From an uncultured Gemmatimonadaceae bacterium (lineage in GTDB: Bacteria; Gemmatimonadota; Gemmatimonadetes; Gemmatimonadales; Gemmatimonadaceae), in assembly GCA_963817955.1 (NCBI GenBank), contig CAWFQK010000002.1:544001-608000 (forward strand): DNA of 64,000 nucleotides. The letters run 5' to 3'. The position numbers were made by a program, and so were the translations under genes. The notes beneath the pieces are model-generated. The model was not told the origin of the DNA. It did no database searches and saw nothing but the letters and a program-made list of their open reading frames with translations. Shown here piece by piece: positions 11,154-12,540 of the stretch (positions are counted from its first letter, which is position 1; every line of letters starts with the position of its first letter).

Positions 11154-12389
11154 ATGCAGTTGTCGACATTTGACGTCCTGGACGCCTATCGGGCGGATCT
11201 AGCAAGCGCCGGCACCGAGCAGTTCGCTGACAGCGACGCGGCCTGGCTCGCGTTCGGTACGATGCTGCAGCGCGCGACGGGGCTTCAGGAGAACGATCGG
11301 GCCGAGTATCTGCAGAACGGAGCTGCAGCGATTGCCGGCATGACCGCCGGCGATTCGGCGGCACCGTCACTCATGGTATTGGCTCGCGACGGGTCGTCTG
11401 CTGCTGTGTGTGCCGCGGCGATGGCAGTAGCGAACAGCGCCGAGGATGCCGGAGCCTTTGCGCTCGCGACGACGATCCTCGATTGCGCCAGGGCGATCAT
11501 CGGCGCGGTCGACGAGCGCTCGCACGGACGATTGCTCGCGCACCAGGCGAGAATTCTCCGCAAGACCGGTGAGCTCGACCTATCGCTGAACCTCTACGAG
11601 CAAGTTGCTGATCTCGGCGCCACATATGGCGATGTCGAGTTGGACGCACGCGCGCATCTCGGCATCGGCGTCATCGCCCGCATACGCGGCAACTATCCGA
11701 TGGCGCGCCAGCATTTCCTGGCAATTCTCGACGGCGATGCGTCGACCGATGCCTTGTACGAGCTGCACACGCACGCCCATCACGGATTGATGGTCGCATC
11801 CGGGGTGGCACGGGATTTTGAGACCTGCTTGCGACACGGTTCGCTTGCGCTGGACCGCGCGCGGGACGCCGAACATCGCACCGAGCTTCTCACGAACCTC
11901 GCGGGCATCTGCCTGCACGTCGGTCAGTTTCGCGCAGCTTTGAATTCCTTTCTCATCATCCTCGCGGAAAGCCACCTTCCGCGCGTCCGCCTGGCTGCGT
12001 TTGGCAGCGCGGCCATTGCGGCCGCTCGTCTTGGTGACGCTCAGATGGTGACCCGACTCGTCACTGCGGCGCTCTCGGCATCGGGTGGCCGCGGACACGA
12101 GTTTGAGTATGCTGATGCATTGCGAGAGTTCGCCGAGGCGTACCTGGTGCTGGGCAATCTCGCGGAGTCGCAGAAACACAGCCAGGACGCACTGCGGCGG
12201 GCCTCGGATGGCGGATATTTCGAGATCACGCATCGCCTGGAGACCATGTCCCAGGGTATCTCTGCGCCAGCACCGATTGCCTTGACGCGTGAGTCTCTCG
12301 ATGTCGCGACTCATCTCGCCGTCGGCGACTCCCAGGAGCTCTTGGCCACGGCAATCAGCAGTGGCCATTCGGATTGGTCCAACCCGTGA
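11154..12389 (+). CDS. TPR-like helical repeat protein (candidate peptide receptor/regulator)
   Basis: Ala/Leu-rich helical repeats of ~40 aa (ARAHLGIGVIARIRGNYPMA; ELLTNLAGICLHVGQFRAAL; YADALREFAEAYLVLGNLAES); no signal peptide. Confidence 0.8.
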   Translation: MQLSTFDVLDAYRADLASAGTEQFADSDAAWLAFGTMLQRATGLQENDRAEYLQNGAAAIAGMTAGDSAAPSLMVLARDGSSAAVCAAAMAVANSAEDAGAFALATTILDCARAIIGAVDERSHGRLLAHQARILRKTGELDLSLNLYEQVADLGATYGDVELDARAHLGIGVIARIRGNYPMARQHFLAILDGDASTDALYELHTHAHHGLMVASGVARDFETCLRHGSLALDRARDAEHRTELLTNLAGICLHVGQFRAALNSFLIILAESHLPRVRLAAFGSAAIAAARLGDAQMVTRLVTAALSASGGRGHEFEYADALREFAEAYLVLGNLAESQKHSQDALRRASDGGYFEITHRLETMSQGISAPAPIALTRESLDVATHLAVGDSQELLATAISSGHSDWSNP

Positions 12390-12540
12390 GCGTCGTGTCA
12401 TTCTGCGATGTCGTATCGACGCAATCGTGCAGTGCACGCGCCACGGGCGCTCTTCGCGATTGCGGCGCCGTCGTGGACGATGAGCACGCCGCGATGATCG
12501 ATGTGAGGAGTACGAATACGAGCAATCGTATGCGAGCCAT
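12355..12540 (-). CDS. 61-aa exported (lipo)peptide with Cys-bounded C-terminal tail
   Basis: GGAG 6 nt before ATG 12540; MARIR-LLVFVLLTSI-IAAC lipoprotein signal; ends CVDTTSQNDTTLTGWTNPNGHC. Confidence 0.8.
   Translation of the reverse strand: MARIRLLVFVLLTSIIAACSSSTTAPQSRRAPVARALHDCVDTTSQNDTTLTGWTNPNGHC

Follow-up and report, generated by a model that had tools for sequence, protein, structure and literature searches.

What, if anything, is encoded by a 61-codon open reading frame (ORF) that lies between two larger genes in the DNA of an uncultured Gemmatimonadaceae bacterium? The ORF is on the minus strand of the 64,000-nucleotide stretch analyzed here (contig CAWFQK010000002.1 of GenBank assembly GCA_963817955.1, positions 544,001 to 608,000), which we refer to throughout as the window. 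A preliminary description, made from the letters alone, had taken it for the precursor of a small lipopeptide with a disulfide-closed C-terminal loop, whose tail is released as a signal. Judged by sequence comparisons, the ORF is a real gene for a lipoprotein-type peptide precursor. It belongs with its two neighbors, which encode a tetratricopeptide repeat (TPR) protein and a regulator with an atypical receiver domain and an AraC-type DNA-binding domain; the TPR gene, the convergent precursor gene and the divergent regulator gene form a triad that recurs across the Gemmatimonadaceae. By analogy with characterized systems, this three-gene module looks like a previously undescribed one that resembles peptide signaling so far known only from Gram-positive bacteria.

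The small gene and its linked partners

The features of the small gene on which the analysis draws are the following.

12355..12540, minus strand: coding sequence of the 61-amino-acid (aa) precursor, with the ATG at 12538-12540 and the stop codon at 12355-12357 included; it has syntenic orthologs and fewer nonsynonymous than synonymous differences per site (pN < pS)
12487..12540, minus strand: type-II-like signal peptide, residues 1-18; the A and C of its lipobox are nearly invariant in 13 alignment rows
12484-12486, minus strand: codon of the lipobox Cys19
12358..12423, minus strand: segment from Cys40 to Cys61, a putative periplasmic disulfide loop that includes both DTT elements; two Cys are found in all genus-type relatives
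12364..12384, minus strand: core motif G53-W-T-N-P-N-G59, the counterpart of D[YF][VI]NPxx in repeat-type precursors and of ...RDYTNPNG at locus L038

In this DNA, with its GC content of 64%, as many as 71 ORFs of at least 30 aa overlap positions 10000-15000, so that the 61-aa ORF by itself is no better than chance; the GC contents of its three codon phases (0.68/0.63/0.50) are not decisive. The translation quoted in the preliminary description is exact for the minus strand, and most of the features that it pointed out are present. These are a good ribosome-binding site (GGAG at -10 to -7, i.e., 12547-12550 on the minus strand, 6 nt ahead of the ATG), a lipobox (R3 and R5, a hydrophobic stretch from L6 to A18, and I16-A17-A18-C19), a repeated DTT (residues 42-44 and 48-50) and the two cysteines Cys40 and Cys61, the second of which is the final residue. 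The arginine pair is also there (R29 R30) but is not kept among orthologs, and the "105-aa extension" was a miscount, in that the longest in-frame ORF (12355-12672) totals 105 aa and the extension itself is 44 aa long. These 44 N-terminal residues are not conserved in the ortholog from genome G012, and the Shine-Dalgarno (SD) site and start are conserved at the short form; for both reasons the start of the 61-aa form is the supported one. The annotation of the window's small gene is corrected, whatever its function may be. Among the sequencing runs listed for this DNA there was no RNA run; four DNA runs from one study were listed, with shares of 0.08-0.27.

Lipoprotein precursors are recognized by a basic n-region, a hydrophobic h-region and a lipobox, [LVI][ASTVI][GAS]C, with the Cys at 15-35 (PROSITE PS51257). 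The 61-aa form has all of the sequence features of a lipoprotein exported by Sec and cut by signal peptidase II (SPII), a lipobox is found in all of its relatives, and the host genome encodes three matches to Lgt (PF01790) and two to SPII/LspA (PF01252), all above cut-off. We infer that the product is lipidated and cleaved at Cys19. The lipoprotein-processing set of this genome is unusually redundant, with two LspA genes in tandem at C4:629028-630022 (minus strand) and three Lgt genes elsewhere.

It is by its conservation, in syntenic orthologs, metagenomic relatives and pN < pS, that the ORF is raised above chance. Searched in six frames, 41 related genomes gave one full-length precursor match, in G012 (E 5e-10, 54% identity), along with weaker ones in G014, G013 and G006, and in these four genomes the small ORF has the same position, tail-to-tail with a gene for a TPR protein of ~410 aa and head-to-head with the gene of an AraC-type regulator. 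With a profile built on five precursors, 270 candidates yielded 10 metagenomic proteins at E <= 0.01. The G012 and L099 sequences account for two of them; the remaining eight are new, and their tails, for example ...CDTTSLSGYTNPSGHC and ...CDSTAFSGYTNPNGHC, have the form ...SGY-x-x-P-x-G-(R)-H-C or, in the L099-like ones, ...GRVCP/GRTCP. Invariant or nearly so in the 13-row alignment are the A-C of the lipobox, the G preceding the aromatic residue, the later G and the last Cys. The earlier proposal was to be given up if there were no homologs with a conserved tail or no purifying selection; homologs were found in which the tail motif is the conserved part, and pN (0.34-0.44) is below pS (0.58-0.76) in six of six pairs of the four genus orthologs, with synonymous divergence saturated. 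Pfam and NCBIfam hold no family for the 61-aa form, the 105-aa form or four repeat-type precursors (described below), and the only matches to precursors were a sub-threshold one to the LptM signal peptide and one other; for the TPR partner these curated collections offer generic TPR repeats only.

The partner genes and the DNA that they share with the precursor gene are arranged as follows.

11154..12389, plus strand: 411-aa cytoplasmic TPR protein, the proposed receptor or adaptor (Pfam TPR_12; AlphaFold2 model with a predicted local distance difference test score, pLDDT, of 93.3)
12355..12389: convergent 3' overlap of the TPR and precursor genes, 35 nt
12541..12649: divergent intergenic region between precursor and regulator, with presumed shared promoters; its length is typical of the family
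12650..13504, plus strand: regulator with an atypical receiver (REC) domain and an AraC-type helix-turn-helix (HTH_18), divergent from the precursor; GTG 12638 is a possible start

Distinct loci were defined by a TPR match followed by an AraC-like match on the same strand, and 68 of these were assembled: 29 and 22 that were anchored on the TPR protein, 12 via a DNA pattern and 5 via a precursor search. The first 51 (29 from a 201-genome sample of the family and 22 from a 401-genome sample of the phylum) were located through the TPR protein only, so that they are unbiased for the precursor. A convergent small lipobox ORF (opposite strand, basic n-region, hydrophobic stretch, and [AGST]C plus 10-90 further residues) was found in the gap of all 68 loci, as compared to 3/68 on the same strand and 11/136 in reversed sequence; the figure of 68/68 rests on a start rule that was revised and loosened, and both controls were scored by the identical rule. 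The distance from precursor start to regulator start is mostly 100-135 nt, and the TPR and precursor genes overlap at their 3' ends by 4-50 nt in 45 of the 68 loci. Within the overlap the precursor tail is conserved and the TPR tail is unconserved and of low pLDDT, which indicates that the small gene sets the constraint on this DNA. A consensus scan of positions 12200-12800 detected no sigma-70-like promoter sites and no terminators.

The DNA pattern, a degenerate rendering of two heptapeptide units of the repeat-type tail, retrieved 37 stretches. The 27 from Gemmatimonad* records have a TPR homolog alongside in every case and an AraC homolog as well in 26, and the record titles place the module family in the Gemmatimonadaceae. 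The ten from other phyla have neither homolog and were taken as chance or unrelated occurrences. The TPR protein itself is encoded by 78 of the 201 Gemmatimonadaceae genomes sampled (E <= 1e-10), representing 35 of 77 genera. Strong profile matches in the phylum sample (E <= 1e-38) are all in Gemmatimonadaceae (30/93 genomes), and those outside this family reach only E 1e-20 to 1e-30 and are mostly restricted to the TPR core. Each of the three TPR paralogs of the genome under study adjoins an AraC-like paralog. Two paralogous TPR and AraC-like pairs, with ~28-32% identity to the module, are located at C2:542695-544733 and C4:1269886-1271976; one of them straddles the start of the window (window positions 1-733, minus strand; C2:543627-544733), where it is seen as an ORF at 2..838, minus strand.

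The abundance of chance ORFs in this DNA, and the absence of both the 61-aa and the 105-aa form from a collection of 15 billion proteins, are what one would expect if the small gene were a spurious frame in GC-rich DNA between two real genes. This is extremely improbable and is effectively refuted by the syntenic conservation, the occurrence at 68/68 loci with its controls, the excess of pS over pN, and the conserved SD site, lipobox and tail.

Precursor tails and their possible fate

The 67 distinct precursors of this family range in length from 42 to 88 aa, and 62 of them are preceded by an SD-like site. What is constant among them is the signal peptide with its lipobox. The linker that follows is short and rich in Ser, Thr, Pro and Ala. 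The tail motif is conserved and at the same time diversifying, and changes between genera while the signal peptide does not. In many genera the motif is D/N-[YFL]-[VI]-N-P-x-[VIAG], in one to five abutting copies that often end at the stop codon; position 6 of this heptapeptide differs by lineage (N, H, L, A, M, R, K or W), and the aromatic-x-Asn-Pro element is invariant in the repeat type. Other genera have a terminal ...[DE]-x-x-P-W-[GNH], often after basic residues (RK before D, RR before E, PK before D), or ...LPWY, or repeats of PT[LVI]PW. The precursors of loci L117-L120 are only 42 aa long, and a terminal hexapeptide is the one conserved element of their mature part. A D-[ST]-T element often stands ahead of the tail motif, comparable to the two DTT elements in the window. 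In the window's genus there is a single G-[WY]-x-N/T-P-x-G between two Cys, e.g., G[WY]xNPxGHC. A repeat-type relative is annotated as "hypothetical protein" and its TPR partner as "tetratricopeptide (TPR) repeat protein". A similar aromatic-x-N-P repeat was seen at the end (FVNPYADYVNPYADWKNPYADWKNPYADWVSPY) of a 330-aa Gly-rich protein encoded by a Desulfobacteraceae metagenome-assembled genome (L063:1613-2602, plus strand), in an unrelated context that lacks a TPR or AraC neighbor.

The mature part of the precursors contains no Cys in 21 cases, two in 46 and never an odd number (67/67), which is what periplasmic disulfide pairing predicts. In the repeat type the pair has the form C-x(3-12)-C, most often with 6-10 intervening residues, and lies ahead of the repeats. 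The Cys pair of the disulfide-closed loop that had been proposed for the window's precursor fits this family-wide rule, in a layout that is specific to its lineage, and we infer the Cys40-Cys61 bond itself. The proposal of a pro-signal, which is the other part of the preliminary description, gains from the position of the gene in the triad, from the abutting tandem tail copies in other genera and from the Cys rule; the proteolytic release that it entails is a presumption.

These precursors have a tail architecture that is typical of pro-signals, in that the motifs are short and placed at the C-terminus or close to it, and tandem copies abut right up to the stop codon. In addition, the anatomy of the triad, i.e., an exported propeptide with a C-terminal 6-7-mer, a TPR protein, a receiver-AraC regulator and a divergent promoter, matches the logic of Rap-Phr and other RRNPP systems. 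The reading that we favor, to which we would give not quite an even chance, is that the module is a Rap-Phr-like pro-signal system in a diderm host, with the 61-aa ORF as its exported (Sec/SPII) pro-peptide and the variable, ligand-like member of the triad. In such a system, cleavage of the signal peptide and lipidation at Cys19 would leave a short mature chain exposed in the periplasm or on the surface, and Cys40 of this chain would pair with Cys61. A protease would then free the C-terminal aromatic/Asn-Pro motif, which is here one G-W-T-N-P-N-G copy enclosed by the loop; from the precursors of other genera it would release either D[YF][VI]NPxx heptapeptides, of which as many as five abut, or a terminal ...PW[GNHY] hexapeptide. 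The freed peptide would accumulate extracellularly and be re-imported (the host genome encodes three Opp/Dpp-type binding proteins), after which it would bind the Rap-like TPR protein. The peptide-bound TPR protein would presumably contact the receiver-AraC regulator and alter its phosphorylation-independent activity, and the regulator would in turn control the divergent precursor promoter and other targets. We also consider it possible, with more reservation, that the Gemmatimonadaceae have a peptide communication that is independent of RRNPP or has diverged from it beyond recognition. It would employ an aromatic/Pro peptide of 6-7 residues that is present one to five times per precursor (disulfide-closed in the genus variant), a Rap-like TPR sensor and a pseudo-receiver AraC regulator, and its tail variants would amount to private dialects.

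The lipobox that is conserved family-wide, and a Cys rule that points to a folded periplasmic state, can also be read to mean that the mature 42-residue lipopeptide stays anchored in the membrane, and that the TPR and AraC proteins regulate its expression and do not sense it. The tethered product might serve, for example, as a decoy, as a ligand that acts on contact or in the periplasm, or as a small His/Cys/Asp-rich lipopeptide that binds metal or envelope components. A strictly linked protease is missing from the module, H38/C40 and H60/C61 are part of the tail, and small lipidated peptides that remain membrane-bound have been documented as DAG-RiPPs (bioRxiv 10.1101/2025.10.31.685832). We think this fate unlikely. 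Spacer-free tandem heptapeptides that end at the stop codon are hard to accommodate in a folded, tethered domain, the conserved mature part of the 42-aa precursors at L117-L120 is a terminal hexapeptide alone, and the His residues of the tail are not conserved (G014, G006). Moreover, the TPR protein that is always adjacent, and has no DNA-binding or enzymatic domain, would still need a role.

The invariance of aromatic-x-Asn-Pro in the repeat type calls to mind a peptide that is made ribosomally and modified after translation (RiPP), which the preliminary description had offered as a second possibility, and multi-core precursors are common among RiPPs. The enzymes would have to be unlinked or loosely linked, and might cross-link aromatic-x-Asn, as in three-residue cyclophanes, or be secreted peptidases that cleave and macrocyclize at Asn-Pro. 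Of 12 extended loci from other genomes, 7 do have a gene for a secreted-looking M1 aminopeptidase on the TPR side and one for an S9 peptidase with a PD40 propeller on the AraC side. The ORFs scanned in positions 1-27 kb of the window encode no radical-SAM, MNIO, YcaO, lanthipeptide or similar enzyme, and the extended loci share only the TPR and AraC genes across all genera, so that the RiPP-like precursor of the preliminary description is left with no linked modifying enzyme. The gene clusters in question were obtained with a crude ORF filter (third-position GC, GC3, > 0.72) that recovered the TPR and AraC clusters in 11 of 13 loci, all of which had been fetched around a TPR match. The M1 and S9 peptidases, considered as processing enzymes, were rejected: they always travel with fadB and a thiolase gene, which cannot be told from synteny inherited by descent, and they are absent from the loci of the window's genus. 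We regard a RiPP as improbable. The peptidase genes near the module in repeat-type genera have the coordinates L080:9691-12447(-), L084:4797-7400(+), L086:5189-7771(+), L080:891-3083(-) and L086:11752-13494(+), and an M28 peptidase gene is found near the module at one locus (L086). M1, S9 and M28 peptidases are enzymes that could process Asn-Pro repeats.

The TPR protein and the regulator

The TPR protein has no signal peptide, and its AlphaFold model (pLDDT 93.3) is all-helical with 21 helices. When the model was aligned to 48,161 representative chains, LGN (Z 23.6) and Pins (23.0), which bind peptides in a groove, ranked first and RapI third (Z 20.0), with 308 residues aligned over nearly the full length. 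The matches further down include RapH-Spo0F (18.2), the Rap of phage phi105 with its peptide (18.2), pLS20 Rap (18.1), domain III of MalT (17.9) and NprR (15.8). RRNPP receptors combine a helical N-terminal domain with a TPR superhelix around the peptide; the fold and size of the protein appear to be Rap-like and like those of peptide-groove proteins, and this likeness stops short of demonstrating RRNPP homology. In a language-model atlas the protein falls among unnamed clusters from Gemmatimonadota.

The regulator combines a receiver fold with an HTH_18 domain. A family profile of its N-terminal domain matches the response regulator 2qxy (E 7e-5), and its AlphaFold2 model, a (beta-alpha)5 fold followed by a double helix-turn-helix, was matched by Foldseek to FixJ, RcsB and 2qxy (target template-modeling score 0.81). 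The canonical phospho-acceptor pocket (DD, D, T/S, K) is not kept in this family. At the position of the receiver Asp, D is found in 16 and E in 5 of 25 sequences, Arg (16) or Gln (4) stands in place of the Lys, the T/S is not conserved, and the copy in the window is without the acidic pair of beta1. No kinase is linked to the module. The degenerate phospho-site fits with control of the regulator by protein binding rather than by a kinase.

Several observations weigh against a Rap-Phr-like system and have to be set beside those that favor it. There is no detectable sequence homology between the TPR protein and the RRNPP receptors. When its family profile was searched against the PDB, LGN was found (E 1.6e-6), and designed TPRs as well, and no Rap, NprR or PlcR, nor any other RRNPP chain, at E <= 1; by Pfam, which reports generic TPR only, and NCBIfam, which reports nothing, it likewise has no homology to Rap, NprR, PlcR, PrgX, Rgg or AimR. 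The top Foldseek matches of the model are generic TPR superhelices, with LGN among them, and the Z scores of 18-20 for Rap proteins lie among those of generic TPRs (OGT 18.6, CTPR 18.3), helical repeats having a high background in such comparisons. The host is diderm, which would mean two passages through the outer membrane for a peptide; neither a transporter nor a protease shows strict linkage to the module, and a lipid anchor would be an odd start for a diffusible signal. A close ortholog of the TPR protein (E <= 1e-40) is found in only 4 of 31 species of the window's genus. Finally, the gaps of both paralogous TPR-AraC pairs contain no recognizable lipobox ORF, and these pairs may use another kind of small gene, or none.

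The adjacency of a TPR gene with an AraC-family gene, which is strict at 68/68 loci and in 3/3 paralog pairs, has a counterpart in type III secretion, where TPR class II chaperones co-activate AraC regulators (IpgC-MxiE, SicA-InvF). By this analogy, the TPR protein might bind the tail of the unexported precursor and, once freed of it by export, co-activate the AraC regulator, in which case the module would report the flux through the lipoprotein pathway and not cell density. The precursor and the TPR protein do share a compartment only before export. A hairpin in the mRNA leader of 13 of the 67 precursors, that in the window included, covers the SD site and suggests tight control of precursor translation.

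12538..12569, minus strand: 5' leader hairpin GCTCC-N8-GGAGC, extended, which buries the SD site (GGAG, 12547-12550) and the start codon

We nevertheless judge export sensing to be a long shot. The TPR protein has ~420 aa and ~10 repeats as compared to the ~150 aa and three repeats of the chaperones, no secretion-system genes are linked to the module, and the diversifying tandem tails argue for a lineage specificity that a flux sensor would not need. The type III pairs resemble the module in that a TPR protein and an AraC-family partner are gated by a third, secreted protein; the module differs from them in the size and repeat number of its TPR protein, in having no linked secretion system and in the receiver-like domain of its AraC partner.

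The leader hairpin of the window's precursor has a minimum free energy of -13.9 kcal/mol, and the other loci that bear it are L002, L003, L004, L008, L010, L011, L017, L035, L037, L038, L099 and L111. In an RNAalifold consensus its five core pairs are invariant and show no covariation, which is uninformative either way. The 3-bp extension of the stem covaries modestly (0.176 vs 0.116 for shuffled alignments, a value reached by 1/500 shuffles), in a set of 13 sequences that was chosen for the GCTCC...GGAGC core and about half of which pair in the extension. A translational switch and a palindromic operator are both conceivable roles for the hairpin, which we treat as a lead for translational control, not as a finding.

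Known systems and neighboring genes

Among the known systems to which the module may be compared, Rap-Phr is the closest in outline. In both, a small secreted propeptide is encoded beside a TPR protein that is cytoplasmic, ~400 aa long and devoid of a DNA-binding domain, the active motif is at the C-terminus of the propeptide, and the likely target is a transcription factor with a receiver domain (Rap acts on ComA and Spo0F); in addition, the modeled TPR fold appears near to those of RapI, RapH and a phage Rap (Z 18-20, near full length). The module differs from Rap-Phr in its SPII/lipobox signal in place of an SPI one, in genes that are convergent with a 3' overlap instead of co-directional, and in an effector that is a linked, atypical REC-AraC gene. 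A small secreted propeptide next to the receptor, the arrangement that is looked for in RRNPP(A) systems, is present at 68/68 loci, in a convergent orientation and with an SPII signal that are both atypical of them, and the host phylum, unlike theirs, is diderm. By these comparisons we would call the module analogous to RRNPP signaling and not demonstrably a member of the RRNPP family.

In PMC9765709 and PMC11343458, RRNPPA systems are described as belonging to the Firmicutes/Bacillota, and signaling by peptides through TPR receptors in the cytoplasm is taken to be characteristic of Bacillota and their phages. The "relaxed" level of RRNPP_Detector accepts propeptides with an SPII tag, in a paper that concerns Firmicutes (PMC10075063). 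Tandemly duplicated pheromones occur in the Phr propeptides of the Rap-Phr systems of phages phi3T and phi105, where, according to the account of them in PMC11343458, several putative mature peptides per propeptide are separated by extracellular proteolysis, much as we suppose for the repeat-type tails. The repeat-type precursors of the module differ from these in having up to five near-identical heptapeptides, free of spacers, after a Cys-x(3-12)-Cys, and the window's precursor differs in having a single copy that is enclosed by two Cys. The DAG-RiPPs (bioRxiv 10.1101/2025.10.31.685832) also have short precursors with a lipoprotein signal peptide and conserved C-terminal motifs that contain Cys, and in some members short repeated motifs such as EGKCG. 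What defines them is a modifying enzyme of the MNIO (ChrH-like) type encoded next to the precursor, together with a partner protein, whereas the module is without an MNIO in the region of the window scanned above, and its conserved partners are the TPR protein and the transcription factor.

A lipoprotein precursor that doubles as the source of a signal has a further parallel in the enterococci. Enterococcal sex pheromones are cut from lipoprotein precursors and sensed by a cytoplasmic RRNPP receptor. Their source is a fragment of the signal peptide of a functional lipoprotein, in contrast to the module, where the conserved element is the C-terminal tail and there is almost no other mature part.

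None of six heptapeptide strings was found in a paper in open-access PMC or bioRxiv, and none of the papers that searches of the same collections listed links Gemmatimonad* to peptide signaling, to TPR/AraC or to lipoprotein precursors. If the favored reading is true, a linked propeptide, TPR and regulator module in a diderm phylum of soil and freshwater would widen the range of organisms in which communication of this kind is sought. It would also supply the first candidate cell-cell signal of the poorly understood Gemmatimonadota and reveal a novel role for the lipoprotein pathway. The module is directly testable, its predicted peptides being short and accessible to synthesis. Genus g60 carries the module and includes single-contig genomes, from which we would guess that cultured carriers may exist.

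Other genes near the module in the window are set apart from the triad by their distribution. The gene that directly follows the AraC-type regulator is listed here.

13529..14410, plus strand: OmpR-type winged-helix regulator (Trans_reg_C) with a degenerate VpsR-like N-terminal domain

By tblastn, this second regulator is adjacent to the module in G014 as well and at no other locus, i.e., it is a genus-level neighbor outside the triad. On the other side, 71 nt upstream of the TPR gene, positions 10451-11083 (plus strand) encode a cyclophilin-type peptidyl-prolyl isomerase with a lipobox of its own (...FTVAC). Its presence is suggestive beside an Asn-Pro peptide, but in the other genomes that were checked it does not neighbor the module. 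Farther along the window, at 17281-20124 (minus strand), the large subunit of ribonucleotide reductase is split by an intein that has a LAGLIDADG homing-endonuclease domain.

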